Of a stretch of DNA of 64,000 bases, positions 18,633-62,822 are shown piece by piece. Position 1 is the first letter of the stretch; each line of letters begins with the position of its first letter. Source of the stretch: a virus (lineage: Duplodnaviria > Heunggongvirae > Uroviricota > Caudoviricetes); IMG/VR virus record IMGVR_UViG_2563366977_000001, positions 1-64,000 of that record; one strand, written 5' to 3'. The notes beneath the pieces are model-generated. The model ran no database searches and had not been told where the DNA came from. It worked only from the letters and a program-made list of their open reading frames with translations. A program made the position numbers and the translations under genes.

Positions 18633-18742
18633 GGTTAAACCCTAAATTCGGGCGCGGCGTGAAGATTCTTTTGACGAGGTGACAATACTCACTTTGTTAT
18701 TTAGTCAATAGCATTAGAAAAATAATTTTCGTTAACAATCTT

Positions 18743-18774
18743 GTGTTAGTATGGTTTAATCTTAATTTTCTAAC
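18743..18774. promoter_or_regulatory. operator-like inverted repeat TGTTAG ... CTAACA in a divergent promoter region
   Basis: tgttagtatggtttaatcttaattttctaaca; a second related site cattagaaaataattttcg lies about 30 bp upstream. Confidence 0.5.
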
Positions 18775-18791
18775 ATAAAGCATTAGAACAA

Positions 18792-19184
18792 ATGGCGTAC
18801 AAGATCTTCGTTTCATACAAAAATGGTGCTAAAAGCCATTCTCTGAATACAAGCAGCAGATGCCTTGTAGAAGCTCAACTGTCATCAATCCTTACTGAAA
18901 GAGACATTCTTTCCCTGGCTGAACGGATCGTGATTCTCCATTCAGGAAAGGCTATTCTTAATGTTCCCGCGCTTACCCCGCCTTCTGACGTTTTGGCATC
19001 TGTTAAGTGGCCTCAAATTGGCACGCCTGTAAGAGTGGAAGATCCTGTAACGACCACTCTTTATATGCCGAAGTCAGTAAGGGATTGGCTTGCTGCGGTT
19101 GGTAATGGGAAGGTCAGCGCGGGGCTTAGGAAGCTGGTTGAAATGGCTGATATTCCGGAGCTGAAAAATGCATGGAGACAGTGA
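18792..19184 (+). CDS. hypothetical protein
   Basis: Track ORF, 130 aa, directly downstream of the operator-like sites. Confidence 0.3.
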   Translation: MAYKIFVSYKNGAKSHSLNTSSRCLVEAQLSSILTERDILSLAERIVILHSGKAILNVPALTPPSDVLASVKWPQIGTPVRVEDPVTTTLYMPKSVRDWLAAVGNGKVSAGLRKLVEMADIPELKNAWRQ

Positions 19185-19654
19185 GTAGAGGAAACATGAG
19201 TCACGCGAACCCATCGAAAACACAATATCGTTTAATGCTGGCTATCGCGTCAGCTATACCAACCAGCCTGAATCCACCCGCTGGCTATCCCGCTATTGTT
19301 GATGATTGTTTTCAGTATTACGGTGAAGACATCCTGAGTCAGTCTAAGGCACTCAAACAGTTATGCAAGGCAGGCATTCTTCACTGCATAGGCGATCCAG
19401 ATGATTTTGTAGTCATGCTGGCAGATCGTGACTCTTTTCTGCTGTCCTGGAAAGCCGGGGCGCGCGAAGCGCGTTTGGGTAATGGTATTGGCTACATCGA
19501 CTATAGCGATTGTCCGCTGGCATTTGCTGGTGGATATATGCATTGGCATGAGCGAAATAGAGGCCGTCAGCGCCAGTATCGCTTGAGTGACTTTAACGTC
19601 TGTCACGGTTTCGAAGAAGCTGACAGCCAGGACATCTGGCTTCAGGAGCCTTAA
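19172..19654 (+). CDS. hypothetical protein
   Basis: Track ORF, 160 aa, overlapping the previous ORF end. Confidence 0.3.
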   Translation: METVSRGNMSHANPSKTQYRLMLAIASAIPTSLNPPAGYPAIVDDCFQYYGEDILSQSKALKQLCKAGILHCIGDPDDFVVMLADRDSFLLSWKAGAREARLGNGIGYIDYSDCPLAFAGGYMHWHERNRGRQRQYRLSDFNVCHGFEEADSQDIWLQEP

Positions 19655-19974
19655 CCCCCCTTCCCTTCCCAAATCTCCCTATTCCTTTGGTTATTCAGTG
19701 CGTTTCGTTGGTTGCATTCATCGATAGTGCTGAATAACTGTTCAGCGTATGCCGGATACTTGTTTAACAGCACAGGCGTGTCCTCTGGCACTATGCAAGG
19801 GGTATAATCAATCAGATTTCCCTGCGGTTTGCTGGTGGCTTCTACGGTAATTTGCATTGGCACGCTGATTGATTTCTTTTGCCCGTTCCCGCTGCATCCT
19901 GATAACGTCATCAGGCACACGCACATCATTAACCCCGGCATTGCGTAACGCAGTTTCAAGACGATTGATTTCAT
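19651..19974 (-). CDS. o-spanin (Rz1-like outer-membrane lipoprotein)
   Basis: Signal peptide with lipobox (LMTLSG-C); the gene overlaps the 3' end of the i-spanin gene in another frame. Confidence 0.6.
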   Translation of the reverse strand: MKSIVLKLRYAMPGLMMCVCLMTLSGCSGNGQKKSISVPMQITVEATSKPQGNLIDYTPCIVPEDTPVLLNKYPAYAEQLFSTIDECNQRNALNNQRNREIWEGKGG

Positions 19975-20266
19975 TCTGGCTTTCCTCCCGTTGTTTGATC
20001 AGGCTGGTATTCAGTTCTGCTGTTTTGCGCTGGTACTCCTTCTCCAGTGTTTTAATTCTTTCGTTTTCAGCCATCATGGCAGATCGCGATTTTTCACTTA
20101 ACTGCAATGCGGTAGAAAGCGTGTTGTTCTCGCTTTCAAGTTGTGATTTTGAGTCTTCCAGGGAACGGATATACCTGATGTGATCGATAACTGCCGCCGT
20201 AGTACGGTAAATTCCATAAATGGCTAAAAGCGCAACTACTATCAAAATTATCTTTTTCAAAACCAT
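19808..20266 (-). CDS. i-spanin (Rz-like)
   Basis: N-terminal transmembrane helix (IILIVVALLAIYGIY) followed by a coiled-coil-rich periplasmic domain; overlapped by the lipoprotein gene. Confidence 0.65.
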   Translation of the reverse strand: MVLKKIILIVVALLAIYGIYRTTAAVIDHIRYIRSLEDSKSQLESENNTLSTALQLSEKSRSAMMAENERIKTLEKEYQRKTAELNTSLIKQREESQNEINRLETALRNAGVNDVRVPDDVIRMQRERAKEINQRANANYRRSHQQTAGKSD

Positions 20267-20336
20267 CCTCTTCAGATTTTTTGTTGGTGTGATATGTGTA
20301 CCAATTTGTAACCATTTATGGGCTTAAATGGTGTGT

Positions 20337-21131
20337 TTATGGTTCCTTTTTAGTGTTGCTTTGGAGCGCATCGATCACACCTTGTGGCATGATCAAACTG
20401 ATTGCCGGACTCATTACTTCATCGCCCAGTAGAGAACCGGTTAACGTAATAGCTACAGCATTCTCCAGTCCCTGTTTGGCTTTTCCGGTAGAGTCCTTAA
20501 CTTGCTGTACAAGTGTTGAGAGACTACTGCTCGTGTTGTTTATTGCATTTATTTGTTCTGTTGCTGCTTCCACAGCGTCTTTTAGTGCTTTGATCTCTTC
20601 TTCTGTTAGTGCTGGTTGCTGTGTTGTTCCGGTGGAACTTCCGTTGCCTGAAGCCTCCCCGCTTGACGCCTGAACTTTTGCATTTATAGCGGTCATGGCT
20701 GAAGTGATTGGCACCAGTTCAAATGCTGCCAACGCGTCAATAAGCGATTGCGGATGCAGGGTATCTCCCATAACTGTTACGAGAGCAAATTCTGGCGCAG
20801 GAGATAACTCATTACCTTTGACGTAACATTCCCAGCCAATTTTCATCTGAAGTAATTCAGTTGGCGAAGTATACGGAGACAGCGAGTCGGCTAAATTGGT
20901 TGCTTCTGCACTGACAGTTTTCAGTTGTTCTGAAAAGACAGAAAGCTGATTGACCCATGAAACCACCGACGCCGGGTATGCTTTATCCTTCAGGATAAGA
21001 GCCTGGATATTCTCTTCCAGAGAACTGGCATTGGATGACGCTGTTTTACTTAGCGTGATAGATGCAGGCGTAGTTGTGCCTGATGCATTTAGAATTTTGA
21101 ATGCATTAACTTCAGCGATTGAATCAAGCAT
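20337..21131 (-). CDS. hypothetical protein
   Basis: Track ORF, 264 aa, S/T/A-rich. Confidence 0.3.
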   Translation of the reverse strand: MLDSIAEVNAFKILNASGTTTPASITLSKTASSNASSLEENIQALILKDKAYPASVVSWVNQLSVFSEQLKTVSAEATNLADSLSPYTSPTELLQMKIGWECYVKGNELSPAPEFALVTVMGDTLHPQSLIDALAAFELVPITSAMTAINAKVQASSGEASGNGSSTGTTQQPALTEEEIKALKDAVEAATEQINAINNTSSSLSTLVQQVKDSTGKAKQGLENAVAITLTGSLLGDEVMSPAISLIMPQGVIDALQSNTKKEP

Positions 21132-21415
21132 TATGACACCTGAAAAATTGCCTCACCATTGGCGATGACTGAGCCACAAGAAAGGGGATCTCCCACACAA
21201 ACAACTCCTTTCCCGCCTATTGCAAACCATGAGCGTGTCGATACGGCTGATCCGGGGTGCGCGCTATTTCCGTCTGTATGGCTGGGGAACGCTCCCCCAT
21301 CTACAACCACTGGCTTTCCATTTACGGTAAACCAGGAAACTGTTTCTGCTACAGGTCGCGGAGGGAATCCTCCATGACCAGAACAAACTGTGTCACTGGT
21401 CGCTATTGCACTCAT
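21131..21415 (-). CDS. PAAR-like spike-tip protein
   Basis: 94 aa, Gly/His-rich with GHGG and repeated V.VGD/G.P-type motifs characteristic of PAAR domains. Confidence 0.4.
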   Translation of the reverse strand: MSAIATSDTVCSGHGGFPPRPVAETVSWFTVNGKPVVVDGGAFPSHTDGNSAHPGSAVSTRSWFAIGGKGVVCVGDPLSCGSVIANGEAIFQVS

Positions 21416-21439
21416 CTAACACCTCCTTTTTCTTAAATC

Positions 21440-21600
21440 TTCTCCACTTTGTGATTTTCACTCTTCAGATTTCTTACTTCTCATATTTGTCTCTGATTTG
21501 TCTCAAACTGGTATCGTGGGCACATCATGTATCATCTAAGTCTCTTTTGTGTCTCTCTTGCGTCTCTAGTTTGATGCTTTTTACGCTATCTAACTTCTGG
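21440..21600. promoter_or_regulatory. parC-like centromere/promoter with TTTGTCTC / TGTCTCT direct repeats upstream of parM
   Basis: atttgtctctgatttgtctcaa ... tcttttgtgtctctcttgcgtctctag. Confidence 0.45.
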
Positions 21601-21664
21601 TCTTATTTTGTTTTCTCATATAAAATTCAATTCTTTCTCAAATGTGTCTCAGAAGTGGAGCAAT

Positions 21665-22624
21665 ATGATGCGCATTTTTATCGACGATGGTTCTACCAAT
21701 ATCAAAATGCTGTGGGAACAAGACGGGGAAACTCGAACCCATATCTGTCCGAACAGTTTTAAACGTGGATGGTCCGCCACATTTGGCGCAGGAAAGCCGT
21801 TTAACTACATCATTGATGACGAAAAATATTCATATGACTTGATCTCGCCGGATGTGCTGCCGACGAATAACGTTGAATGGCAATACAGCCCGCTTAATGT
21901 GCTTGCTGTTCATCATGCCCTGCTTACAAGTGGCATTGAGCCTCAAGAAGTGGAAATAGTTGTCACGTTGCCACTGGCAGAGTTTTATGACGACGACGCA
22001 CAATACAACATGAAAAATATTGAGCGGAAAAAGGCCAGCCTGATGCGACCAGTCACCCTTAACAAAGGTCAGGTTTTTACTATCAAAAAAGTGACTGTGC
22101 GCCCGGAGTCAATACCCGCAGGGATCGGTCTGTGCGACAGCCTTGTGCCAGCGCATTCTGTGCTTATTGTTGATCTTGGTGGGACTACTCTGGATGTGTC
22201 GATGGTCGCCGGGCAAATGACCGCCGTTTCTCGCGTATTTGGCGATTCTAATCTCGGCGTTTCGCTGGTAACTAAAGAGGTCAGACAGGCACTTGCAAAA
22301 GCGAATACCGAAACCTCTAATTATAATGTCGATCAATTAATCATTAATCGTGATGATGAGGATTATTTGACCGACAATATTAACGATCCGTCTGCTATTG
22401 ATGATGTTAAGAAAGCCATTTCGTCAAGCATAGAACGACTCCGTACACGCGTACTGGATGTGATCAGTGATTTCAAAGGATACACGCATGTTATGGTCAT
22501 TGGTGGCGGCGCGCCGCTTGTTGCTGATGCTATCCGTGAGCAGGTAAACATTCGTGACGATAGGTTTTTCGTTGCTGATGATCCACAACTTGCTCTTGTC
22601 TATGGTCTAAAATCTATCGGTTGA
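21665..22624 (+). CDS. parM: actin-like plasmid segregation ATPase ParM/StbA
   Basis: MMRIFIDDGSTNIKMLW start and overall similarity to R1 ParM as I recall it; GGAG Shine-Dalgarno 4 nt upstream of ATG 21665. Track ORF starts earlier at 21608. Confidence 0.85.
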   Translation: MMRIFIDDGSTNIKMLWEQDGETRTHICPNSFKRGWSATFGAGKPFNYIIDDEKYSYDLISPDVLPTNNVEWQYSPLNVLAVHHALLTSGIEPQEVEIVVTLPLAEFYDDDAQYNMKNIERKKASLMRPVTLNKGQVFTIKKVTVRPESIPAGIGLCDSLVPAHSVLIVDLGGTTLDVSMVAGQMTAVSRVFGDSNLGVSLVTKEVRQALAKANTETSNYNVDQLIINRDDEDYLTDNINDPSAIDDVKKAISSSIERLRTRVLDVISDFKGYTHVMVIGGGAPLVADAIREQVNIRDDRFFVADDPQLALVYGLKSIG

Positions 22625-22634
22625 TGAGGTTGCC

Positions 22635-23000
22635 ATGTCTCAGGAACGTCGAAAAGTATTGTTTTATCTTCGTCCTGGTCTTAACGCCAGTGAGCAATAT
22701 GCTGATGCAAAACTTGAGGGCCATCCATTAAGAGATCGCAATGATATGGCGCGCACAGCGATGCTTGCAGGTATCGCTCTTGGCGAGGTTGATAGCAGAT
22801 TACCTCCCATGTTGGCATCGCTTTTATCCGGTGATAATAGCCCTGAAGTGATCAGAAAAATGCTGGTTTCATTTCTTGAAATTTCGCCTGAAGTTCGGGA
22901 AAACCCTGAAGGAAACCCCTCTGCCTCAGCGGATGTTAAAAAACCTGGCGTTTCGAAAAGCCGCTCTGCACAGAATTTGGCAAACTCACTCCCTGATTAA
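22635..23000 (+). CDS. parR: ParR/StbB-like centromere-binding protein
   Basis: 121 aa immediately downstream of parM; N-terminal RRKVLFYLRP resembles the ParR ribbon-helix-helix region. Confidence 0.55.
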   Translation: MSQERRKVLFYLRPGLNASEQYADAKLEGHPLRDRNDMARTAMLAGIALGEVDSRLPPMLASLLSGDNSPEVIRKMLVSFLEISPEVRENPEGNPSASADVKKPGVSKSRSAQNLANSLPD

Positions 23001-23015
23001 CAAATCTACATCTTC

Positions 23016-23040
23016 AAAGGCTGCAATTTGCAGCCTTTTT
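23016..23040 (+). terminator. rho-independent terminator after parMR
   Basis: aaaggctgcaaatttgcagcctttttta: GC stem followed by a T-run. Confidence 0.6.
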
Positions 23041-23059
23041 TATACTGTTATGGTTCTAA

Positions 23060-23130
23060 TTTGGTGCTGTTTTAGTACCAAAACGGTGTTGTTGTGGTGC
23101 TGTTTTGTGTCTGGTTCCACTTTGAGGCTG
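23060..23130. repeat. parS-like repeats (TAGTACCAAAACGGTGTTGTTG / GGTGCTGTTTT) upstream of parA
   Basis: A related copy (tagtaccagaatggtgttgttag) lies downstream of the operon near 24255-24300. Confidence 0.45.
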
Positions 23131-23285
23131 ATTTCGTGTTAAACAGGATGCAACAGAGGGCAAATTTCGAGTGTTTAGTGTTATACTTTTGCAAAGCATA
23201 GTGACTCCACTATAGAGCCAAAACCGCATCAATAAGGCTTCTGTTTGGAGCCATTTTGATACCAAAATAACACCGAGGGACGGAT

Positions 23286-23927
23286 ATGATTATATTGGTA
23301 GCCAGCCAAAAAGGTGGCTGTGGCAAATCAACCACCAGCGTAAACATTTGTGCGGAGCTTGCCCGCGCAAATAAGGACGTAGTTCTACTTGATGCAGATA
23401 AGCAAGGAACATCTGCCCGTTGGGCATCGGACCGTAATGCGGCAGAGGTTTCTCCAGTAATTCATTGCGTCCAGAAGTTTGGGAATATTCGTGAAACACT
23501 TCTTGATCTGGACAAGCGTTATGAATTTGTGGTTGTTGATACCGCTGGTCGTGATAGCAAAGAGATGCGCACCGGTATTACTGCGGCGGATGTTTTGCTT
23601 GTTCCATTCAGGCCATCTCAGCCAGATTTAGACACGCTGGCGCATTTTGTTGAAGTCTTTGAAGAGGCTTTGGATCTGATGCCTAATCCTAGCATTAAGG
23701 CGTGCGCAGTTTTAACAATGGCCCCATCCAATCCGGTTGTGAATGAAGCCAATGAGGCCAAAGAGTACCTGGCTGAATATCCGCAACTGAAGTTGCTGAA
23801 AACCATCATTCGCGATCGCAAGGTTTACCGCGATTGTATGGCTGAAGGGAAGGGCGTTGTTGAGATGGACAACGGGAAAGCTAAAGGTGAAATCCAGATG
23901 TTGGTTAAGGAGTTATTAAGTGATTAA
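23286..23927 (+). CDS. parA: ParA-family partition ATPase (small, type Ib)
   Basis: Deviant Walker A KGGCGKST near the N-terminus; 213 aa. Confidence 0.85.
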   Translation: MIILVASQKGGCGKSTTSVNICAELARANKDVVLLDADKQGTSARWASDRNAAEVSPVIHCVQKFGNIRETLLDLDKRYEFVVVDTAGRDSKEMRTGITAADVLLVPFRPSQPDLDTLAHFVEVFEEALDLMPNPSIKACAVLTMAPSNPVVNEANEAKEYLAEYPQLKLLKTIIRDRKVYRDCMAEGKGVVEMDNGKAKGEIQMLVKELLSD

Positions 23928-24207
23928 GCCTCGTAAATCGGTAAAAGCCCCCGAAGTAAAAGACCTCGATCTTGAACGCCGAATTGAGGCTTTTGCCAGC
24001 AAAGCTGATTTGGTGCCGGGTGAGCAACCAGAAGACAACAAAGTGCTCGATAAGGACGCCCCACGTGATTTTAAATCCATTCGTGTTGGCTTCAATGAAT
24101 ACGAGTACCAGGTACTTGATGCGTTAAGCAAAAAGCATAATCGCAGCAAATTGAATATGATCCGCCATGCTATCCTCATGCTTGCAGAGTCTGAGGATAC
24201 AAAATGA
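23920..24207 (+). CDS. ParG/ParB-like small centromere-binding protein
   Basis: 95 aa overlapping the parA stop; C-terminal region resembles an RHH fold (NRSKLNMIRHAILML). Confidence 0.5.
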   Translation: MIKPRKSVKAPEVKDLDLERRIEAFASKADLVPGEQPEDNKVLDKDAPRDFKSIRVGFNEYEYQVLDALSKKHNRSKLNMIRHAILMLAESEDTK

Positions 24208-24342
24208 CGCCGGAATGACACCGTTTTGGTTCCATGTGTTATTTTGAGGCTACTTTGATTCCTTTTTAGTACCAGAATGGTGTTGTTAGTGTACCGTAAC
24301 GGTGCTTGTTTGATGTTATAAAAGCCCCATATGGGGCTTTTC

Positions 24343-26827: not shown

Positions 26828-26875
26828 GCAAAACTGTGTTAGAAAATGAAACTAAATTATCTAACACAGTTTTGC
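26828..26875. promoter_or_regulatory. perfect inverted repeat operator (15-bp arms GCAAAACTGTGTTAG / CTAACACAGTTTTGC) upstream of rdgC
   Basis: gcaaaactgtgttagaaaatgaaactaaattatctaacacagttttgc; contains the recurrent TGTTAGAAAAT core. Confidence 0.6.
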
Positions 26876-32761: not shown

Positions 32762-32785
32762 AAAGCCCACCTTAAGGTGGGCTTC
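32762..32785 (+). terminator. terminator hairpin
   Basis: aaagcccaccttaaggtgggctt. Confidence 0.5.
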
Positions 32786-32985
32786 GCCAGAAATTATTTT
32801 CTGGTATTCAGAACGCCATTACCGGACTTTGCCTTGACCAAGTATCACAACAGGCTTGACCTGTTATGATAGCTGGTTGCGGGATGTCTGAATTTCTTCA
32901 GTCTGCTGCATCCTCGAAGGTTTGGTTCAACATGTACCATTCCTTCACCGTCATAATAGTGAACTATTCACGTCCTTACAAACAC

Positions 32986-37227: not shown

Positions 37228-38049
37228 ATGTTTTTAAAGAAATGCGGAAACATATTTTGTTCAACAGCGTTTACTGCTGTTATTGCTCTTTCGGTTCCCA
37301 GCATATCTTTTGCTGAAGATTTTAGCAAAATTGACTGTAACGCCACAAAAACAAGGCAGATGTTGATCGATGATTATAACGAACTTTTAAAAGATGAACC
37401 GGAAAAAGTAACAGTAATTGATGCTTACGATCAGGTTAATGAAATAAGCGAAAAAAATAAACTCCAATGCTTGGGAACGTATGAGTTCTCTGATGGAAGC
37501 ACGCTTAGAGTTAGGTATAATTTATACCTAAACAGCCTAGGTACACCTATATATAAATTTGTCCCAGTTGAGGATTTAACGCAATATGACGTAAGCGCAT
37601 CTATTCATAATGCTCCTGCAACCATTACGAGTGCGCCTGAAAATAATGGAAAAACATACGCCTGTAAGGTCGCTGTAACCTACAATGGAAAACGCTCTAA
37701 CTACATGGGGGATTCTGGTACATGGGATCGTGTGATTACTGATTATGGATCTTACTTCTCATGGGATTTGCCACGCGGAAACAGAGGTAACAGCACTGGG
37801 CAGGATGCTTTTAGTGGTATAGACGAATCAAAGCCTGTATTAGAAAATCAGTTGGTGAGAAAGGAAGTCGAAAAAGATGGTAGTGTGGTTGATGAGTTCA
37901 GGACTGAAGTAAGCTATGGTGAGAGACAATCAGCACATAAGTTTGTATATGCCCGTAGAATAAAACCTACAGGGACGAGAGAATATTATGTCACAGATCT
38001 GACTGATAAACGGGCATTTATGTTTCTGAATTGTCAGCAAGATTCGTAG
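37228..38049 (+). CDS. secreted protein of unknown function
   Basis: Start at MFLKKCGNIFCSTAFTAVIALSVPSISFA (signal peptide) with GGAG upstream; AT-rich gene. Confidence 0.45.
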   Translation: MFLKKCGNIFCSTAFTAVIALSVPSISFAEDFSKIDCNATKTRQMLIDDYNELLKDEPEKVTVIDAYDQVNEISEKNKLQCLGTYEFSDGSTLRVRYNLYLNSLGTPIYKFVPVEDLTQYDVSASIHNAPATITSAPENNGKTYACKVAVTYNGKRSNYMGDSGTWDRVITDYGSYFSWDLPRGNRGNSTGQDAFSGIDESKPVLENQLVRKEVEKDGSVVDEFRTEVSYGERQSAHKFVYARRIKPTGTREYYVTDLTDKRAFMFLNCQQDS

Positions 38050-40119: not shown

Positions 40120-40400
40120 TTGCTAATTTAAGGAGCTACCGCGTGAGGTCTCAATCTCAATGGCGGTAGCACTGGCTGGGTTGAGACTACCGGCGCAAAA
40201 GGGAACCGGCCTGCCTTTCGGCAGCCCAGCCAGCACTACCATTGATCTTGGAGCTATACGCTACGTATGGCTGTGCGATGGCATGACACAAAAAAAGACG
40301 CTTTCGGCGTCTGTGTCGCCTTTTGCATTATCCGGGGTCTCAATCCCGGCACCCGTTTTTCTAAGGTGCCGTAGAAATATACCTCACGATAATGCCAGGG
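40120..40400 (-). ncRNA. candidate structured antisense regulatory RNA (c4-like) in the ant leader
   Basis: Dense hairpins and repeated ggtctcaatc (x2) versus ttgagact; no ORF of 60 aa or more; operator-like motif at the promoter end. Confidence 0.3.
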
Positions 40401-40915
40401 CGCAACAGTCAGTATTTTATGCTTTGGCGGATTTCTTCCGGGCTTGCTTGCAGGCGTAGGCCATTGCTTTAGCTTTCACTTCATCCAGCTTTCCGGTGAT
40501 CACTTCTTTTCCGAGAGTGACAAACCAGTCATAGCAACCGCCAGTGATGTTCTGGATTTGAAAGTTGAGGTAGCGAACGGTCATTTTGACACCCCCAGCG
40601 CGAGTAAAGAATGCAGATTATCGCGTGAGTGGCGGACAACGAGTGATGGGAAAGGACAGTAGCTGTTCATAGTGTAGTGACTCCTTGCTTTCGGAGCCGC
40701 CATCGACTGTTCCACGGTCTGGTGGCGGCGCAATAAAGGTTGGAACACCGTGAGTCAACGGGGGCTTTTCAGCCACCTATATTGCACCGCCATTGGTATG
40801 GCGGCGGCAATCATACGAAAAACCAAACGGTTTGTCTCAAAAAGTTGACCGGTGTACCAATCGGTTGTGAATGTACAACGGCGAATCTCACAATTCAACT
40901 TAAAATGTTAGAAAA

Positions 40916-41533
40916 TTAATTCATTAATTCAGTCACCATCTGATACAACGTCATTTCATCAGCATTGTGCCGCCTGAAATCTGCTTTGCCGCCTATTTTT
41001 CCATCAGCATGAACAGGAACCAACCAGGGGTATTGCTCGCGGATCTCTGCTGGCGCTGCGTGTTGATGGTGCCATTTACACAAAGGGAGGACGTATTTAT
41101 GCGCGTTCTCTGCTGTTCTCCCAAAGATGTGGTGCAGGGATACCACAGGGCTATGCTGTCCGTGCATATGGCAGGCAATGCAGGGGAGAGCACCGATGGC
41201 AGTTTGTATCCGGCGCTCATCTGCTGTGAGTGTTCTGCCTTTCAGGCCGCGTGACGCGCGCGTTTTTTTGACAGGAGCAGAAGCGGCCTTCTCTTTTCTT
41301 CGCTGTTCATATTGCTTCGCTTTTTCAATTTTCTTTTGCCGATATTCAGGCGATGCGGCTTTTTCTCGCGCACGCTGCTGCTGGCGTTGAGCTTGCTGAA
41401 GACGCTTTGCCCTTTGTTCCTCCCGCCATTTCGGATCAGCCAGTTTTTGCAGGGCTTTTTGTGTCTGTTTCTCCCAATAGCTTTGCTTCATAGAAATACC
41501 CGGTTTGTCTACATAGCCGCTATGGTTGATCAA
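40916..41533 (-). CDS. HNH endonuclease with basic N-terminal region (P1 Ref-like)
   Basis: CIACHMHGQHSPVVSLHHIFGRTAENAHKYVLPLCKWHHQ HNH motif; K/R/Q-rich N-terminus; operator palindrome directly upstream. Confidence 0.5.
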   Translation of the reverse strand: MINHSGYVDKPGISMKQSYWEKQTQKALQKLADPKWREEQRAKRLQQAQRQQQRAREKAASPEYRQKKIEKAKQYEQRRKEKAASAPVKKTRASRGLKGRTLTADERRIQTAIGALPCIACHMHGQHSPVVSLHHIFGRTAENAHKYVLPLCKWHHQHAAPAEIREQYPWLVPVHADGKIGGKADFRRHNADEMTLYQMVTELMN

Positions 41534-41535
41534 AC

Positions 41536-41567
41536 GTGTTAGAAAATCAAAATTGATTTTCTAACAC
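41536..41567. promoter_or_regulatory. perfect palindromic operator GTGTTAGAAAATCAA-AA-TTGATTTTCTAACAC in a divergent promoter region
   Basis: Seen directly between the Ref-like gene and the rightward early operon. Confidence 0.6.
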
Positions 41568-44760: not shown

Positions 44761-44792
44761 GTGTTAGAATATTGATTTTAATTTTCTAACAT
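44761..44792. promoter_or_regulatory. operator-like palindrome GTGTTAGAATATTGATTTTAATTTTCTAACAT inside the early operon
   Basis: Same motif family as 41536-41567. Confidence 0.5.
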
Positions 44793-44833: not shown

Positions 44834-45829
44834 ATGAGTGCAATAATCACACCTCATTTCGTAAACGGAGCTGGTGTGGCTGTCTTTCCGGTAGACAAGC
44901 CCACCAGCAACTACATTGGCGCAGGTCGCCGTTTCATTATCTCTCCACTTCCGCGCGAACAGGCTGAAAACACGCCAGATGGCGTAGTGGATCTGAACTA
45001 TTCGCTGGTTGCCAACCAGTCTCTGAAAGCATTTTTTCAAAGCGAGCGCGTATTTAACGCATTAGGCGGTGAAGATTCGCTTGTTCATTGGGTAAGTTCC
45101 AATATCCACGATTGCCAGGCGCACGATAAGCGCGATTGCAGCCACCAGCTAACCACTCATTTCTATAACGGCTCTGCCGTTCGCCTGTGCTGGAAGCATG
45201 ATGCGGAATACATGATGAAGGGGTACGGCAAGCTGGATGACCAGTTATCCCTGAATCGTGCCAACTGGGTTATGAACTGGGCTGCGAGCGAGTTAAAACT
45301 ACCGCCAGAACGCGATCTGAGCATGGTTGAACTCACTTTTTGGGCCATTCGCCGGAATCTGAAAGACGAGCTGCCAGATGAAGCCGGTCGCATTGCATTT
45401 TGTCAGCCAAAACAGGAAATCCCTACCGGCACACTGAAAGAATCGGATATCACCTGGGAGCACAGCACCCGTGAGCTGGTGGACATAACCGCAGAGCAGA
45501 TCGTCAACCTGTCTGTAGATGAGGATTCCGGCCTGCTGTATATGCGCCGACCAAAAGCGGTTCTCGGTAAAAGCCCGGCTTATCTCCGGTTTGTGATTTC
45601 TCGTCCGTGCATCGGATGCGGAGGCAAAGTTAATCACCCGTTCATGTACCGCGCCCGCTCGTTAAACGAACACGATCGCTGGGCCGTTCCTCTTTGCGAT
45701 GAATGCGCCAGAAGCGCAGAAAACGATGTCCGGGCATGGGAAAAAACACATGGCATACGCCTTTACGTAGCCGCCAACCAGCTTTTCGACTTCGCCATCG
45801 AGCGCGGAGTGATCACGTTCAATAACTGA
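44834..45829 (+). CDS. hypothetical protein with C-terminal Cys/His zinc-binding motif
   Basis: 331 aa; RPCIGCGGKVNHPFMYRA...PLCDECA. Confidence 0.35.
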   Translation: MSAIITPHFVNGAGVAVFPVDKPTSNYIGAGRRFIISPLPREQAENTPDGVVDLNYSLVANQSLKAFFQSERVFNALGGEDSLVHWVSSNIHDCQAHDKRDCSHQLTTHFYNGSAVRLCWKHDAEYMMKGYGKLDDQLSLNRANWVMNWAASELKLPPERDLSMVELTFWAIRRNLKDELPDEAGRIAFCQPKQEIPTGTLKESDITWEHSTRELVDITAEQIVNLSVDEDSGLLYMRRPKAVLGKSPAYLRFVISRPCIGCGGKVNHPFMYRARSLNEHDRWAVPLCDECARSAENDVRAWEKTHGIRLYVAANQLFDFAIERGVITFNN

Positions 45830-52346: not shown

Positions 52347-52366
52347 TACTGTATGAATAAACAGTA
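52347..52366. promoter_or_regulatory. LexA (SOS) box upstream of humD
   Basis: tactgtatgaataaacagta matches CTGT-N8-ACAG with flanking TA; about 20 bp upstream of the humD start. Confidence 0.7.
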
Positions 52367-52384: not shown

Positions 52385-52774
52385 ATGGGCTTCCCTTCTC
52401 CTGCGGCGGATTATGCAGAGAGCCGTATTTCTCTTGATCAGCAACTAATCAGACATCCTTCTGCGACCTACTTCATGCGGGCGGCAGACAGCCATCACCG
52501 TGAGGGAATATTGCAAGGTGCTTTGCTGGTGGTTGATTCCTCACTTACTCCGGTTGATGGTTCACTGCTTATATGCGCTATGGAGGGTGAATATCGCATA
52601 AAGAGATACAGGAAGTATCCGCGCCAGCACATGGAGGATTTAAGCACCGGGAAGAAAGAGGCGTTACCAGTGGATGACGATGGATACACGGGCAGTAATG
52701 CTGTTTTTGGTGTGATCACCCACATTATCAATGACGCCAGGGGCGGTGAATTTGATGATAGTCCTGCTATATGA
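52385..52774 (+). CDS. humD: UmuD'-like SOS mutagenesis protein (P1 HumD homologue)
   Basis: FPSPAADYAESRISLDQQLIRHPSATYF..., colinear with E. coli UmuD minus its N-terminal 24 residues. Confidence 0.8.
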   Translation: MGFPSPAADYAESRISLDQQLIRHPSATYFMRAADSHHREGILQGALLVVDSSLTPVDGSLLICAMEGEYRIKRYRKYPRQHMEDLSTGKKEALPVDDDGYTGSNAVFGVITHIINDARGGEFDDSPAI

Positions 52775-55561: not shown

Positions 55562-55575
55562 AATCCTTCCTCTAC

Positions 55576-56070: not shown

Positions 56071-56555
56071 TGCTTTTTAGCTCTCCGGGTAAATGTATAA
56101 ATCCGGCGTTTGATATGCGGAGCGGTCGGAACGGAGACGCAGGTATTCTCGATAACACCTTGTTCCTCCAGCGATCGCACAGCACGCAAGAACTGTGATG
56201 CATCACCACCGCCAGACAGCCAGAATTTGCGGGCATAGACGCTGCCATTACGGATAATTTCTGCGATCACCCGCGCTTGCGTCTGGCTTTCTCGATAGCC
56301 AAAGAGTTCTCTTGCCTCTCCTTGTGGGATAGCCAACTGATAGCCTTTCCCGCTACGGTGACGAACAAAACCGTGAGCAATGAGGTTCTTCAGCTCATTT
56401 CTGGTGCGGATACACCCGTACTCAGGGAACTGTGTGTTGATATCACCAGGCTTATGCCATTCATCAGGACTATCAGCCAGGAGGGACAGAAGTTTCCCTG
56501 ACAGCTCAGGATTAGTGGTTGGATAACAGTTCAGGGATGGGTAGTAAGTTTTCAT
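56067..56555 (-). CDS. hypothetical protein
   Basis: Track ORF, 162 aa, overlapping neighbours by 4 nt. Confidence 0.3.
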   Translation of the reverse strand: MKTYYPSLNCYPTTNPELSGKLLSLLADSPDEWHKPGDINTQFPEYGCIRTRNELKNLIAHGFVRHRSGKGYQLAIPQGEARELFGYRESQTQARVIAEIIRNGSVYARKFWLSGGGDASQFLRAVRSLEEQGVIENTCVSVPTAPHIKRRIYTFTRRAKKQ

Positions 56556-56896
56556 TTGCGCCCCCTTGCCGGATAGCGCCCGGCATTCGCATCAGGGGCA
56601 ATGAAGCCGCTGGTGGGGCGAGTGAAAACATGGTTAATTTTCTCGGTCATAGCGCGATAATTTTCCTGATAGTGGGCCAGGAGTTTTTCAGCAGCAATGA
56701 CGGTTACTTTCCGGACGTAGCGTTCAGCTTCCTCCAGATTTCGCCAGTTTTTTTCGAGGGTAAATACGGGAACGGCATCAAGTCCGGTCATAACACCGAA
56801 CACCACGACCGCCTGGTCGCGCTTAACGCCCGCAGTGAAGGTTATGGTGTAACCGTCAACAGTGAAGCGTTTTGATTCCGTAATACGATTGTGCAA
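56552..56896 (-). CDS. hypothetical protein
   Basis: Track ORF, 114 aa; operator-like motif tgttagaaaat upstream at about 56954. Confidence 0.3.
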   Translation of the reverse strand: MHNRITESKRFTVDGYTITFTAGVKRDQAVVVFGVMTGLDAVPVFTLEKNWRNLEEAERYVRKVTVIAAEKLLAHYQENYRAMTEKINHVFTRPTSGFIAPDANAGRYPARGRK

Positions 56897-56968
56897 AGTA
56901 CCCTCCGCAATAGGCGAGGGTACTTTACATTAAAATGCACTGTCTAAAAAGATTGTTAGAAAATTAAT

Positions 56969-57997: not shown

Positions 57998-58149
57998 GAA
58001 ACTATTAAACCTCTATATACAGATAACGCTACGTGAAAAATAGAAAACTGACAGGGTAGTTATAAGTTAATTTTCAAAATTCAAGCCTTTGATTCGAGGC
58101 ATGATTTTTCATCCTTGTCAATACTACCTGTTTACTGGAGATTATAGCC

Positions 58150-58181
58150 TAACTTTAAATAATGCCAATTATTTAAAGTTA
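58150..58181. other. rox-like site-specific recombination site (14-bp inverted repeats, 4-bp spacer)
   Basis: taactttaaataat gcca attatttaaagtta, about 150 bp upstream of the recombinase start codon. Confidence 0.8.
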
Positions 58182-58378
58182 GAAATCAGGACTTTTTTCC
58201 CAAAAAAAACACCGACCAGATCACTTCGCAAATCCGTCAGCCATGCGGTAGCTGTTCCTGGTTACATTTTCTAATAGGAACAATCAAAAAAAAGCGGTTT
58301 TATCCTTTACTCACCTTGTTATTCAGCATAAATTTGTCACAGGACTTTTATGTTAGAAAACTAAATCGAGTAGGAATA

Positions 58379-59416
58379 ATGAGTAAGAAGTCGATCGAGA
58401 ATGAGTACAAACGGTTCCTGCAAACCGCTGAACGGTGGAAAGAGCTGGTGGTCGCAAACTCTGTTTTCCATGATACCAGTTATGTTGGCGAGGAATTTCG
58501 CCATGTTGCATTAACACATGATCCGGCTGTATTAGAAGAAGCTGAAAAATGCATAGCCGAATGGAAAGCCTTTGTTGATCTGTGTCGCAAGGATGATGAC
58601 AAAGCCTCAAACATTGTTGAGTCGGTTTATTTACCGATCCCATTCATTGTTGAGGATACTAATCAGAGTACGCATATCGTTATGCAAAGCGCAACCACAA
58701 CGAGAACATTTACGCGCGAAGACCTGCTGAAAAAATACGATAAAACTATAAAGAAAAGCATGAAAAACAGGATATTTTCACAGGTTGTCGGTGCGCTTGA
58801 AGAAGAACGCAGATTCTTCGCCGCTGAACGTGAGGGCGAGGTATACCGCGCAAGAAAAGAAGGTTATACCGATGTGGTGATTACCACCAATATCGAGGGC
58901 AACAATGGACTTTCACGCTTCCGAGTGGGTGCGCACGGTGCGCTGATCTTTGCAAGAAAAGCAAACACAGAGATTCCCGTTGTTAACAACGTTGGTGAGC
59001 GCCGTACCCTTACCATTTACACTGGCATTAAACCGCTTCCGTGCGGACTTCTCGGCGAATTTGACCTTTATCGGGTTCGTGATCTGGAAAAGCAGCAGCC
59101 AAGCTATGTCGTGAAGTCATATATCCTGAGAAACATTGATATCCGCAATCAGAGTTTAAAAAACAAATCAGATAAAATGCTGGCCGAAGCCGATCCAGCC
59201 ATACACCAGATCGTTAGCCGGAAAATTCAAGAGGCTAAAGATGCAATGGCAAGGCTGGATAAAATGGACCTGGAACTACTGGAAGTTATGATTGCCTCCG
59301 GCGATGACCTGACAGGCATCCGCCTTACTGAAGCCAGGAAAAAATACGGTAAAAGCGTTGAAGAACGCTATGGGTACACATTCACACAAACGATGTACGC
59401 GGCAAAACTCTGGTAA
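58379..59416 (+). CDS. hypothetical protein between rox and pacB (position of P1 c1; no recognisable similarity)
   Basis: Start MSKKSIENEY after AGGAA; operator-like tgttagaaaac about 20 bp upstream. Confidence 0.35.
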   Translation: MSKKSIENEYKRFLQTAERWKELVVANSVFHDTSYVGEEFRHVALTHDPAVLEEAEKCIAEWKAFVDLCRKDDDKASNIVESVYLPIPFIVEDTNQSTHIVMQSATTTRTFTREDLLKKYDKTIKKSMKNRIFSQVVGALEEERRFFAAEREGEVYRARKEGYTDVVITTNIEGNNGLSRFRVGAHGALIFARKANTEIPVVNNVGERRTLTIYTGIKPLPCGLLGEFDLYRVRDLEKQQPSYVVKSYILRNIDIRNQSLKNKSDKMLAEADPAIHQIVSRKIQEAKDAMARLDKMDLELLEVMIASGDDLTGIRLTEARKKYGKSVEERYGYTFTQTMYAAKLW

Positions 59417-59453
59417 TCGCAAACCACCCACAAGCCCCGAATCGCCGGGGCTT

Positions 59454-60962
59454 TTAAATGTCAATATCAGGAATATCCACTTCTGCCAACACCTGATCGC
59501 GGAATGTTGCGAGTTCTGCGCCAATGTCTTCATTAGCAGGCACGTAATCCACCAGCATAGTGAAGCAGTAGGTATCCCATCTGTCCGGCGACTTGATGTT
59601 TAACTTCTGCCGCATGTGCTCCTTGCGCATCATCGCTACCTTCCCTTCTTCGTTAAGCATATACGGGATTTTTGATGCCTGATCTGCGGTTTTGGGGTCA
59701 CTATCGATACGCATACGCCCTGATTTAATGGCATCCCCTGCCATAATATTGGCGTAAGCACGCTGATTGACAAAGCGTTCTCTGTCTCTTAGCGCAAACA
59801 TAGGCTTACCCCAACGGATGCGAACGGGATTAGCACCACGGCGGACAAGCTGCGCACACGTATCTGAACCAAAGCCATCAGCATCCACAGCAATGGTGAT
59901 GTTCGGGTATTTATCAGGAGTGCATTCGTTATAGATAAAGTCGGCAAAAGCCAACGGGTCCATAGTGCCTGGCATCTCCAGTATCTTAAAGTTCACAACG
60001 CGTCGTTTCTCACGATAACCGGATACTTTGCATATATTGAGCACCGATTTGTCGCGACCATTACCGACGTCAGCGGTCGCTACCCAGCCCCAATCTTTCT
60101 CCAGCAACACTTTACGCCGTGCGGCGCGGTCGCACTCATCACGACCAAGCAAATACCCGTTAATTGCACGCGGGAACTGGCCCAGCACCTTAACCATGTA
60201 CTCCAGCGAATCCCTGCCGCCGTACTCCAGCAATTTCTCACGAATAAAGCTCGGTTCAACGAATGGAGATTCTTCAGAGTTAAGGACTATTGCCGTCCAG
60301 ACTCCTTCCGGATTGCCTTCTGCCTTTGCCCTTGAATGGTGGGATTCATAAAAGTAACCGCTTGGACGCGTAGGCTGGGAAAGCATGAGCATACGGTTAT
60401 CTTTCTGCGTTAACGCCCCCGTCATGACGTTAATCGCCTTATCGGATATGCCCGATGCTTCATCAAGGATTAGCAGTAAATGCTCCGCGTGCTCCCCCGC
60501 CAGTGCCTCTTCGTTACCGAGTCGATAACCTTTACAGAGCACTTCCCATATCCCTTTACGGGAACGCTCATAAAACATGGTGTCAGACAGGACAAAATAG
60601 GTCTGTAACCAGCCGTGGCGCTTAACAGCATTCGCCCAAAACTGTTTCACGTATTTGAATACGCCTGTTTTTACCTGGCCTATTTTGTTCGCAACAATAA
60701 TGACGCGGGCGTCGGGGAACAGGATCATAAAAATTAGTAGCAACATCGCGGTAAGGGATGACTTACCCGTTCCGTGTCCGGACGTAACGGTCGTCCTGCT
60801 CCCCGTCTCCTGCACTGACTGAATGATCTGCTGCTGCTGATGGGAGGGGAACATCCCAAAAATATCGACAACCGCCTGGGTAAAGTTGTATCGATACCTG
60901 ATAACCATATCGCGCCAACGTGGATCACTGGTGACGCACTTAATCTTACGACCACCAGCCAT
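59454..60962 (-). CDS. pacB: terminase large subunit (PacB-like)
   Basis: Walker A-like TSGHGTGKSSL near the N-terminus, 502 aa, immediately downstream of the pacA-like gene. Confidence 0.7.
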   Translation of the reverse strand: MAGGRKIKCVTSDPRWRDMVIRYRYNFTQAVVDIFGMFPSHQQQQIIQSVQETGSRTTVTSGHGTGKSSLTAMLLLIFMILFPDARVIIVANKIGQVKTGVFKYVKQFWANAVKRHGWLQTYFVLSDTMFYERSRKGIWEVLCKGYRLGNEEALAGEHAEHLLLILDEASGISDKAINVMTGALTQKDNRMLMLSQPTRPSGYFYESHHSRAKAEGNPEGVWTAIVLNSEESPFVEPSFIREKLLEYGGRDSLEYMVKVLGQFPRAINGYLLGRDECDRAARRKVLLEKDWGWVATADVGNGRDKSVLNICKVSGYREKRRVVNFKILEMPGTMDPLAFADFIYNECTPDKYPNITIAVDADGFGSDTCAQLVRRGANPVRIRWGKPMFALRDRERFVNQRAYANIMAGDAIKSGRMRIDSDPKTADQASKIPYMLNEEGKVAMMRKEHMRQKLNIKSPDRWDTYCFTMLVDYVPANEDIGAELATFRDQVLAEVDIPDIDI

Positions 60963-62326
60963 TAGTCATCCTCCGGCTGGTCTATCACAATCTCGTCATC
61001 TACAGCATCAAAACCGGTATCCCCCGCGTCATAATCACCGTAGATATCAGCCGTGGCGGAAGGGTCTATATTCAGGTCTTCATCATTGGCCTCAAATTCA
61101 CCGGCTTTACGTTCTCCGTTCCGGTCGTAATCCCCCATCCCAAGCCTATCAACGATTTTCGCTACTTCAGCCCGGCGTTGTGCAAGCCATTGTGGGAGTC
61201 CAGCTTGTTGCTCGGCAAACTGCTTCGCCTCTTTATCCAGTTGCTCATCATCAACATCGTTAACGTCAGAAACCGGAGGCTCCAGAAGTGAGATCGCTTT
61301 TGCCGCTCGTGCCGCCAGGATAGCTGGGACACTGACGCCCTGCCGCTCGATATATTCAGCTACGCCTATATCGTCCAGCTCCTCGCGCTCACGCATACGT
61401 ATAGCGGCGGCGATAACCCTGGCGGCGCGTGCGTCAGCGCCAATGCGATACTCAATCTCCTTGCCACGCTGCTCGGCCTGCAGGCGGGCAATCGCCAGTT
61501 TTTCTCTGGCCTCAGCCTCCCTGAATGCCTGCTGACGCGCGCCCTGCGCAAGTTTTTCATCCCCCTGGCGTAGCTTCTGCTCGGTCTGGTAGATGGCTGC
61601 CAACCTACTGATAAAGTCATTCATGTAGTAGGCCGCATCGCTTATTAGGCCGAGAAGACGCTGCCCTGGGTGCATCCCCTCTGGCTGTGTATCGCCGAGG
61701 GCGTCAATCTCTTCCTGTAGTCGCTCCGCTTCCTGGTCAACGATGGCCTGATACTGAATTGCTCGTTCCTGCGCCATCTGTATCGCAAGTCGTAAATGTT
61801 CAGTCGCGCCGTTCTTCATCATCTCACGGGCGACGTTGGTGGCAGGCAAAGTGGCGCTTTGAGCTGATGAGTCAGGGATCATTTGCAATGATCCCTTGTT
61901 TCGTTGGGCTTTTTCGCTGCTTTTAGGGATCATTTCTCCCATTTCATCACAAAATGATCCCTTCACATCCTTGTGTATCCTGTTGTTATTACTTGGTTTT
62001 TCTTTGTGATCCGCATTTTGTTTTTGCGGCATGGCGCGGAACTGTCCACCAGCTAACGATTTGTCAGTTTTTGTAAATTCTGTGCTTTTATCAGCCTTTT
62101 TTTGCTCTTTTTTTGAGCCGGTGGCGCTGCTTTTTGCGCGCTGTTTTGTACTTTTCCCGGCAGCCTTAGCTTTCGCCTTAACCTCATTTTTTTTCATATT
62201 GAGATGCTTTCTGGCGGTGTTAAAGCTGAGGTCATGCTGCTCGCAATATTCTTTTATGGTGATCCCGGTTTCTTCTCTTAACTCCAGGAACTTAGCTCGA
62301 TGCGCCTCCCAGTTAATTAACGTCAT
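60962..62326 (-). CDS. pacA: terminase small subunit / pac-recognition protein (PacA-like)
   Basis: N-terminal HTH-like ITIKEYCEQHDLSFNTARKHL and basic region; the gene contains a cluster of GATC hexamers resembling the P1 pac site. Confidence 0.55.
   Translation of the reverse strand: MTLINWEAHRAKFLELREETGITIKEYCEQHDLSFNTARKHLNMKKNEVKAKAKAAGKSTKQRAKSSATGSKKEQKKADKSTEFTKTDKSLAGGQFRAMPQKQNADHKEKPSNNNRIHKDVKGSFCDEMGEMIPKSSEKAQRNKGSLQMIPDSSAQSATLPATNVAREMMKNGATEHLRLAIQMAQERAIQYQAIVDQEAERLQEEIDALGDTQPEGMHPGQRLLGLISDAAYYMNDFISRLAAIYQTEQKLRQGDEKLAQGARQQAFREAEAREKLAIARLQAEQRGKEIEYRIGADARAARVIAAAIRMREREELDDIGVAEYIERQGVSVPAILAARAAKAISLLEPPVSDVNDVDDEQLDKEAKQFAEQQAGLPQWLAQRRAEVAKIVDRLGMGDYDRNGERKAGEFEANDEDLNIDPSATADIYGDYDAGDTGFDAVDDEIVIDQPEDD
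61872..62264. other. candidate pac site: cluster of TGATCC/GGATCA (Dam-site) hexamers inside pacA
   Basis: GATC at about 61875, 61890, 61928, 61956, 62006 and 62261; the first four form two inverted pairs within about 85 bp. Confidence 0.45.
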
Positions 62327-62715
62327 AGGGAAGCCTCACGTTTTTTCACAGCGGCGTTCCATAGCTGGTTAGTCATCGCCACCAACTGACGCTGCTCCTT
62401 TCGTAATTGAGCTTCTATCTTTCGGTTGGTGTTTTTCACCAACAGCCGACCGAATTCAGGAGTGCGCCCGCGCACCTTGAACTGGTATCCATTCAGGCCA
62501 TGTAACCAATATTTCCGGGGGTATACGCGGTCGTCTATTTCGCAAATGGCACGACTGGAACGAACAAAAAAACGTATGATGTTATTTACGTTTACGCGCG
62601 ACACATGAAGGTGAGGATATTGTGCTTTTGCACGGCTGGTGATTTCGGTGACCGTCAGATAGCAGTCAGCCCTGATCATGATATCCGCTATTTCGGCGCT
62701 ACTGATTTGCTCCAT
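62323..62715 (-). CDS. small regulatory-like protein in the position of P1 lpa (late promoter activator)
   Basis: 130 aa directly upstream of pacA with a 4-nt overlap; operator-like tattagaaaattaatattaatttactaa upstream at about 62793-62820. Synteny only. Confidence 0.3.
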   Translation of the reverse strand: MEQISSAEIADIMIRADCYLTVTEITSRAKAQYPHLHVSRVNVNNIIRFFVRSSRAICEIDDRVYPRKYWLHGLNGYQFKVRGRTPEFGRLLVKNTNRKIEAQLRKEQRQLVAMTNQLWNAAVKKREASL

Positions 62716-62822
62716 TTATCCCCCGGATAGAAAAAGACCGAGGGGATGATAATCAGCTTGTTAATACTGAGAAGACTGTCAAAAACATGATGTATTAGAA
62801 AATTAATATTAATTTACTAACG

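Follow-up and report, generated by a model that had tools for sequence, protein, structure and literature searches.

In the 64-kb stretch of DNA analysed here (64,000 nucleotides, hereafter the window), a dispersed motif, TGTTAGAAAAT, is probably bound as an operator by a C1-type master repressor that the element itself encodes, the predicted product of the gene at 58379-59416. The relationships of its sequence mark the window as a relative of phage D6 and as part of a P1/D6-like plasmid prophage. It was ~99% identical to the Escherichia marmotae plasmid NZ_CP056699.1 and showed 73-96% nucleotide identity to D6, of which it is a diverged relative, and a scan of IMG/VR returned near-identical loci only.

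The exact 11-mer was found seven times in the window against 0.03 expected, and none of 100 shuffles reached seven, so that a chance origin was rejected; with up to one mismatch there were 15 matches against 1.67 expected. A 21-bp weight matrix derived from the motif sites was then run on the window, as a sequence-only reading of this DNA had proposed for the whole genome, and gave 14 half-sites of at least 16 bits at nine loci, while mononucleotide shuffles gave 0.07. That reading had placed the motif at eight or more promoters; the recurrence was borne out and all of its coordinates were right, but one site, at 58266-58276, was missing from its list. It had also named a similar density of the motif in coding DNA as evidence against an operator set. 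The strong sites were all located in true intergenic DNA (greedy ORF calling leaves 10.6% of the window as non-coding DNA), and the apparent coding flags on some of them were due to over-extended GTG or TTG starts or to small spurious ORFs. The matrix scan found no site of at least 10 bits in positions 1-18,700 and none of at least 16 bits in the tail, baseplate and capsid genes between 27,000 and 40,000, in agreement with the absence of sites before structural operons that had been noted by eye. Four weak matches of 11.8 to 13.7 bits (21605, 31461, 36519 and 37833) fell inside called ORFs or at their starts. A doubtful copy, TATTAGAAAAT at 37838..37848 (plus strand, score 13.7), inside the simB-like coding sequence, is identical in D6 at 72931, an identity for which coding constraint alone could account. 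When the 8-mers of the intergenic DNA were counted without bias, pieces of the motif ranked top; the repA iterons were the only other enriched repeat family, and no second candidate for a dispersed operator was found.

From left to right in the window, the first site is a weaker half-site, CATTAGAAAAA, at 18712..18722 (plus strand, matrix score 17.8), upstream of the gene starting at 18792; it is present in the E. marmotae plasmid and falls below the threshold in D6. An exact match at 18765..18775 (minus strand, score 24.9; D6 site 54207) lies 17 bp 5' of the ATG of the same gene (18792-19184), in the gap toward the divergent capsid gene. The inverted pair at 26828..26875 (half-sites 26837-26847 on the plus strand and 26856-26866 on the minus strand; D6 pair 64116/64135), with 20-nt arms that are 95% complementary, occupies the 59-bp gap that precedes rdgC (minus strand, start 26822), the first gene of the methyltransferase/dam operon. 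The exact match at 40906..40916 (plus strand; D6 site 75980) adjoins the 3' end of ref, at the head of a minus-strand immI-like operon (isrK-like RNA, C4 RNA, icd and ant) in which Rfam located the C4 RNA at 40159-40246 and isrK at 40291-40369. A perfect inverted pair at 41536..41567 (cores 41537/41556), with 15-nt arms that are 100% complementary, separates the divergent ref gene (start 41491, minus strand) from the rightward early operon (ATG 41610), the flanking genes being Ref and DUF4406 by Pfam. Another inverted pair, at 44762..44791 (cores 44762/44781; D6 counterpart 80704/80723), is upstream of a DUF968 (pdcB-like) gene at 44834-45829. The exact match at 56954..56964 (plus strand) immediately follows the stop codon of dre, lies upstream of the minus-strand gene at 56552-56896, and is in the same place in D6 and in three more distant relatives, L013, L014 and L015. 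Two putative operators precede c1: TATTAGAAAAT at 58266..58276 (minus strand), which matches with at most one mismatch, and, 85 bp from it, TGTTAGAAAAC at 58351..58361 (plus strand; D6 site 199), 18 bp 5' of the c1 ATG. The last locus, at 62793..62822 (cores 62793/62812), is the inverted pair TATTAGAAAAT / CGTTAGTAAAT, ~80-105 bp upstream of lpa (62323-62715, minus strand; BPP1_LPA by Pfam). The gene names given earlier (rdgC, ant, ref, lpa and dre) were upheld by Pfam and Rfam, which recognized RdgC, Ref, Lpa, a Rha-type Ant, the C4 antisense RNA and the Dre recombinase.

The inverted pairs at four loci share one fixed geometry, with an offset of 19 bp and 8 bp between the units. The sites had been described as often perfect palindromes; the pairing was confirmed, but only 41536-41567 is perfect, the other three pairs being 92-95% complementary. 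Because strong single sites have no partner, the unit that is bound appears to be one half-site of ~17-21 bp, with the consensus aaatTGTGTTAGAAAATTAAttt, and this single-unit reading fits the asymmetric 17-bp operator of P1 C1. Single sites occur in either orientation relative to the neighbouring gene, which fits a bound repressor rather than a directional promoter element. The motif does contain TGnTA and CTAACA strings and stands ~20-130 bp from gene starts, and P1 operators likewise overlap promoter hexamers (P1 record), so that it could be read as an extended -10 (TGnTAGAAA) or a -35-like CTAACA of early promoters. This is very unlikely, since single sites are found in both orientations (promoters at 40906 and 56954 would be directed into a convergent gene at its 3' end) and several sites are only 15-18 bp from a start codon, too close for transcription to begin in between. 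A strict sigma-70 scan (at least 9/12 matches) also called no promoter overlapping any site; relaxed candidates (8/12) do overlap sites, but AT-rich DNA yields many of these by chance and they are compatible only. The strict scan also counts against the operator reading itself, as does the distance at lpa and immI, where the best promoter candidates are 40-110 bp downstream of the sites.

The repressor gene had been reported as not confidently identified in this window. Sequence comparison identifies 58379-59416 (plus strand), predicted to encode a D6-type C1 repressor of 345 aa that we propose as the binder of all the sites, as the ortholog of the annotated D6 c1: the two proteins are 81% identical, and the window C1 belongs to the same PHROG as P1 C1 (PHROG 1678, with hits of 1.7e-159 and 2.6e-140 for the two). 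BLASTP aligned 241 aa of the window C1 with P1 C1 at 21% identity (E=2e-7), the aligned sequences are collinear and have invariant residues, and PF27008 (Phage_P7_repressor_C1) was found on relatives of the window C1. The score of the window C1 against the C1 equivalog model NF041318 of NCBIfam was 23.9 bits for a cut-off of 500 (607.5 for P1 C1), which indicates a divergent subfamily and not the same protein as P1 C1. The two motif copies at 58266 and 58351 flank the likely c1 promoter, a conserved promoter-like TTTACT-17-TAAATT. Outside these operators and boxes, the rox-c1 spacer of ~380 bp shows little conservation, and it holds no conserved ORF resembling coi, the antirepressor gene that in P1 is upstream of c1 and co-transcribed with it; none is annotated in D6 either.

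The sites occupy places expected of a C1 regulon. In P1, 22 dispersed operators with the consensus ATTGCTCTAATAAATTT have targets that include repL and lpa (PMC8546580), and C1 controls ref, dmt, kilA, ssb and ban (PMC4713147); the P1 record carries annotated C1 operators at lpa (Olpa) and at c1/coi (Oc1a-e). The window has sites at the equivalent places, before c1 (58266 and 58351) and before lpa (62793-62822), and altogether at counterparts of the P1 C1-controlled c1, lpa, ref, immI c4-icd-ant operon and rdgC-dam. The resemblance to P1 and P7 extends to a homologous repressor, to many operators spread over a plasmid prophage of ~90 kb, to the target classes (c1, lpa, ref, immI, methyltransferase operon and repL), to asymmetric unit sites that are single or in inverted pairs, and to the location of c1 between pacB and the recombinase site. 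There are also differences. At ~21% identity to P1 C1, the window C1 carries a C-terminal helical extension of ~65 aa, and the core TGTTAGAAAAT shares little beyond TCTAA/TTAGA with the P1 operator. Units of a pair are 8 bp apart in the window, whereas in P1 the bivalent Oc1ab consists of two 17-mers overlapping by 6 bp. The P1 operator had been correctly given in the sequence-only reading as ATTGCTCTAATAAATTT (PMC8546580), and it has no match in the window at up to three mismatches, which makes a distinct immunity specificity plausible, as was suggested there. The best register of the P1 operator against the D6-type consensus gave 12/17 identities, with column correlations of 0.51 and 0.48 in the two orientations; this modest similarity, which does not favour either orientation clearly, counts against the reading. 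On these comparisons, the set would be a dispersed operator regulon of the P1 type whose operator sequence and pair geometry are different.

Every locus of the window has a counterpart in D6, and between the two elements the cores were more conserved than their flanks (88.8% against 77.1% identity, p=8e-4). The D6 immC region (c1-rox-dre; AY753669, MF356679/NC_050154) has the same gene order, an identical rox and the motif at every orthologous position, but its records annotate c1 and not the repressor-binding sites. The operator sequence is so far unannotated, and a full-text literature search with the motif string retrieved no phage paper, although the D6 operators may already have been described in print; the arrangement itself is expected from P1. 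The core at 58266, TTTTCTAA, was invariant across six aligned elements, and at 58351 five of the six have ATGTTAGAAA, while L015 has CTGTTAGAAAAGG, shifted by a few bases and misaligned. In L013, L014 and L015, whose C1 proteins are 44-50% identical to that of the window, all three retain the core behind dre and in front of c1, and the 85-bp spacing at c1 is kept in L013 and L014. Upstream of lpa, the site scored 13.2 in L014 and 23.2 in L015, with no score in L013, and it is also retained in D6. When C1 identity drops to 32%, merely TTAGA/TCTAA-like remnants are left.

The conjugative Salmonella resistance plasmid pK91 was rejected as a phage with a third type of c1, as it contains only a D6-like c1-dre fragment. 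Its sites are confined to that fragment, and the matrix scan found none in its ~84 kb of unrelated DNA. It is exceedingly unlikely that the motif reflects a preference of host nucleoid proteins (H-NS, IHF or Fis) for AT-rich DNA or the mere composition of intergenic regions. Intergenic DNA is indeed AT-rich, and H-NS has been reported at the P1 ref control region (PMC4713147), but seven exact 11-mers against 0.03 expected, pairs at a fixed 19 bp and invariant cores are far more specific than this, and the unrelated pK91 DNA is devoid of sites.

The sites could also be operators of another protein encoded by the element (a second repressor, a Cro-like early regulator, the Rha-type Ant or a small helix-turn-helix protein), C1 reading something else. 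The element does encode further predicted DNA-binding proteins, and the association of C1 with the motif comes from sequence rather than biochemistry: the core is constant for C1 identities of 44-100%, so that no co-variation links the motif specifically to C1. We nevertheless consider this unlikely, because in all relatives compared a conserved site lies on either side of the c1 promoter region, the regulon corresponds to the one under P1 C1 (PMC8546580; PMC4713147), the repA iterons are the only other enriched family of intergenic repeats and nothing else suited to a dispersed operator was found, and the pK91 fragment has kept c1 along with its sites. The master-repressor operator set proposed earlier is thus supported by the intergenic location of the sites, their presence at counterparts of P1 C1 targets, their conservation, their mixed orientation and the pK91 fragment.

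If C1 is the protein that reads these operators, it would occupy ~14 half-sites at nine intergenic loci of the window in the plasmid prophage, and its binding would turn off regulators and genes of early lytic growth. The targets in the window would be lpa (the late-promoter activator), the immI c4-icd-ant antirepressor operon, ref, the rightward early operon, rdgC-methyltransferase/dam, the DUF968 gene and the gene after dre, with repL and pmgS as targets beyond it. At four promoters, two units would face each other at the fixed 19-bp offset. C1 would probably regulate its own gene via the two sites 85 bp apart, possibly by looping. We infer the binding, the repression that would follow from it, and the monomer and looping details from sequence.

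A model of C1 gives a tentative lead on how such sites might be read. E. coli Tus is the replication terminator protein and binds asymmetric Ter sites as a monomer. Of the structures compared with the predicted C1, Tus alone gave a significant match, but one with low TM-scores (0.34-0.40) and for a single AlphaFold model built from 10 sequences; a truncated single-sequence model had a pLDDT of 39 and was unusable. At the level of sequences and profiles there was no significant match to Tus: hhalign of C1 against Tus gave a probability of 0.4% with a narrow profile and of 9% (E=0.0036, collinear over 99 columns) with a 64-sequence profile, the weakest members of the C1 family had no Pfam Ter match, and a PDB profile search with C1 found nothing. 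A BFVD structure search gave no match. A monomer on an asymmetric site parallels the asymmetric single-unit sites of the window, whereas Tus-Ter arrests forks and C1 would repress transcription. We tentatively suggest, at somewhat less than even odds, that the P1/D6 C1 family is a Tus-like two-domain monomer clamp rather than a helix-turn-helix repressor, and that immC specificity is common to the D6 group, with heteroimmunity determined elsewhere. The sharing of one core by C1s that are only 44% identical suggests such a group-wide specificity, heteroimmunity being set for instance at immI. A clamp of this kind would explain the long-known asymmetric P1 operators, and one protein would serve single units, facing pairs at the 19-bp offset and the 85-bp bracket at c1. 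C1-operator complexes might then be roadblocks, perhaps polar, to RNA polymerase or replication forks. If the fold is upheld, it would provide a first structural rationale for the reading of asymmetric sites by this small, odd repressor family.

The biology of the regulon is what would be expected from P1. Plasmid prophages of the D6 type are common among Escherichia, Salmonella and Shigella, and they can carry resistance genes. The operator sequence and its target map could be used to predict co-immune relatives, to annotate early promoters and to design inducible or immunity-defective derivatives. The complete near-identical E. marmotae plasmid contains ~21 half-sites at ~14 loci.

The motif TGTTAGAAAAT occurred in seven exact copies in the window (0.03 expected) and in 15 copies when up to one mismatch was allowed (1.67 expected). 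A scan with a 21-bp weight matrix, derived from the motif sites themselves, gave 14 half-sites (single copies of the motif, with an 11-bp core) of at least 16 bits, compared with 0.07 in shuffled sequence, and an unbiased 8-mer count of the intergenic DNA ranked motif fragments first. The sequence-only reading was thus right to propose a recurrent motif and placed its sites accurately, but it overlooked the one at 58266-58276. The half-sites are distributed over nine loci, as inverted pairs (26837/26856, 41537/41556, 44762/44781 and 62793/62812), as single sites at 40906 and 56954, as half-sites 18712 and 18765, and as half-sites 58266 and 58351 upstream of c1 (58379-59416). The offset within the four inverted pairs was constant (19 bp); these had been described as often perfect palindromes, which is true of 41536-41567, while the other three pairs are 92-95% complementary.

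All half-sites are intergenic, although only about 10.6% of the window is intergenic DNA. CDS flags on a few matrix matches were traced, from the annotations of D6 and of an Escherichia marmotae plasmid, to GTG/TTG over-extended or small spurious open reading frames. No site of at least 10 bits was found between positions 1 and 18,700, and none of at least 16 bits in the tail and baseplate block. A copy of TATTAGAAAAT at 37838-37848, within a simB-like coding sequence and identical in D6, could be an intragenic operator or merely conserved coding sequence.

Judged by its collinearity with D6 (73-96% nucleotide identity), the window is a relative of this P1-related plasmid prophage; it is also about 98-99% identical to the E. 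marmotae plasmid pRHBSTW-00605_3 (NZ_CP056699.1). Pfam confirmed RdgC, Ref (a RecA-dependent nuclease), DUF4406, DUF968, Lpa (BPP1_LPA), a Rha-type antirepressor and the Dre recombinase at the motif loci. Three RNAs scored above the Rfam gathering score, all on the minus strand: sroH (32762-32947), the C4 antisense RNA (40159-40246) and an isrK-like RNA (40291-40369). Because the last two lie within the leader immediately before icd-ant, the site at 40906 heads an immI-type operon; in P1, the c4-icd-ant operon is C1-controlled.

The genes behind the window sites are c1, lpa, ref, the immI operon and rdgC-methyltransferase/dam, and the complete E. marmotae plasmid, with 21 half-sites in total, has additional ones before repL, a second icd-ant operon and pmgS. 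Annotated C1 operators in the P1 record stand before lpa and around c1/coi. P1 has 22 dispersed C1 operators of asymmetric consensus ATTGCTCTAATAAATTT, with targets that include repL and lpa (PMC8546580), and C1 control is also given for ref, dmt, kilA, ssb and ban (PMC4713147).

Every window locus has a D6 counterpart, and the core positions were 88.8% identical between the two, compared with 77.1% for flanking intergenic DNA (p=8e-4). In three metagenomic elements whose C1 is 44-50% identical (L013, L014 and L015), the TGTTAGAAAA core was kept after dre and upstream of c1 in all three, while a scoring site upstream of lpa was present in L014 and L015 and absent from L013. When the rox-c1 spacer was aligned across six elements (mean identity 50%), the conserved islands were rox, the cores of both operators and a pair of promoter-like boxes, and the 85-bp spacing of the two c1 operators was retained in L013 and L014. 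The Salmonella Typhi conjugative multidrug-resistance plasmid pK91 (NZ_CP029874.1) carries only a D6-like fragment (17766-24000) with c1, dre, dut, phd/doc, an S24 peptidase gene and a theta-subunit gene. Its only two sites, adjoining c1 and after dre, are intact and lie in this fragment, and none was found in about 84 kb of unrelated pK91 DNA; the fragment, a prophage remnant, may continue to confer immunity. Single sites occur in either orientation relative to the neighbouring gene; this suits protein binding and is evidence against a directional promoter element. The master-repressor reading is supported by these comparisons, and the motif set is best described as the predicted operators of a P1 C1 regulon in its D6-group form. 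Since the operator core was constant while C1 diverged to 44% identity, there is no co-variation of protein and site to clinch the assignment to C1; at 32% identity, only TTAGA/TCTAA-like remnants were visible. With the core unchanged down to 44% identity, the immC specificity may be common to the entire D6 group, just as C1 specificity is common to P1 and P7.

The repressor gene, which had not been confidently identified, can be assigned to 58379-59416. It lies between pacB and rox/dre, in the same place as the annotated D6 c1, and its product is 81% identical to D6 C1. Alignment with P1 C1 was collinear over 241 residues (21% identity, E=2e-7), PHROG 1678 takes in both proteins, and the NCBIfam P1-C1 model gave a collinear match of 23.9 bits, far under its 500-bit cut-off. 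Pfam PF27008 (Phage_P7_repressor_C1) is present on database relatives. Together, these results mark the window C1 as a distant homolog of the P1 repressor. A multiple alignment of the family showed invariant residues and, at the C terminus, a helical extension (about 65 residues) missing from P1 C1. Among 1.84 billion representative proteins, this small family accounts for 107 clusters at 50% identity.

The binding unit would be one asymmetric site of about 17-21 bp, with consensus aaatTGTGTTAGAAAATTAAttt. Strong single sites, 40906 and 56954 among them, lack a recognisable partner 19 bp away, so the simplest reading is one protein molecule per unit, consistent with the asymmetry of the P1 operator. 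At four promoters, two units face one another, their 11-bp cores 8 bp apart. A conserved TTTACT-17-TAAATT (58306-58334) is enclosed by sites 58266 and 58351, which would lie near -70 and +15 of this putative c1 promoter, an arrangement that suggests negative autoregulation, possibly via looping. Several sites (18765, 26837 and 58351) are separated from a start codon by 15-35 bp, so that some of them may act beyond the point where the transcript begins. A strict promoter scan called no promoter at the motif sites, and the only candidates overlapping them were relaxed ones (8 of 12).

The logic and the targets are those of the P1 regulon, whereas the operator sequence and pair geometry differ, the repressor is divergent and c1 has no preceding coi: no conserved coi-like open reading frame was found before c1 in the spacer alignment or the D6 annotation. 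In the P1 record, the bivalent operator Oc1ab consists of two 17-mers overlapping by 6 bp, whereas the window cores are 8 bp apart. At up to three mismatches, the P1 consensus had no match in the window, and control of this element by P1 C1 is therefore not expected. The earlier description of the motif as resembling but differing from the P1 operator was fair: the best register of ATTGCTCTAATAAATTT against ATTTTTCTAACACAATT matched 12 of 17 positions around a common TCTAA. We do not press this alignment, since the two orientations scored almost equally in a matrix comparison (0.51 and 0.48). In the D6 database records, c1 is annotated without any binding sites; an earlier description in print is possible.

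An AlphaFold2 model of C1 (10-sequence alignment, pLDDT 83, pTM 0.51) had E. coli Tus as its sole significant Foldseek match in the PDB (four chains, E 1.4e-7 to 2e-6, about 273 aligned columns, TM 0.34-0.40). A PDB profile search with C1 was empty, and hhalign with a narrow profile gave a probability of 0.4% for Tus. With a 64-sequence profile, C1 87-186 matched Tus 147-258 weakly and collinearly (E=0.0036 for a single comparison, probability 9%), which puts R157 and R159, both invariant in the family, on a basic Tus strand. In an open-access library, no paper was found that mentions Tus alongside the C1 repressor or that combines "Tus-like" with both phage and repressor. Since Tus clamps its asymmetric site as a monomer, such a fold would suit the asymmetric C1 operator; a Tus-like fold is possible, as a lead and not a finding.

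The rox site (58149-58182; 15-nt perfect arms, 4-nt spacer) is identical to that of D6 and overlaps an 11-of-12 sigma-70-like promoter, TTGGCA-16-TATAAT (58168 to 58141, minus strand), directed at dre. A 10-bp stem-loop (AAGTACCCTC...GAGGGTACTT, 56900-56940, minus strand) is found downstream of the 56954 site, between this operator and the start of the next gene; because relatives retain it with different stem sequences, it suggests a conserved RNA structure or a terminator-like element. A near-consensus LexA box with one mismatch, TACTGTTTATTCATACAGTA (52347-52366), lies just upstream of 52385-52774, a UmuD-like humD gene by collinearity with D6, and suggests SOS control of this gene. Repeats of AATGTTGACTAT at 9994-10068 (21-bp spacing) and 11084-11292 flank 10178-11062, a RepB-family replication initiator gene by collinearity with related records, and look like the iterons of a plasmid replicon.
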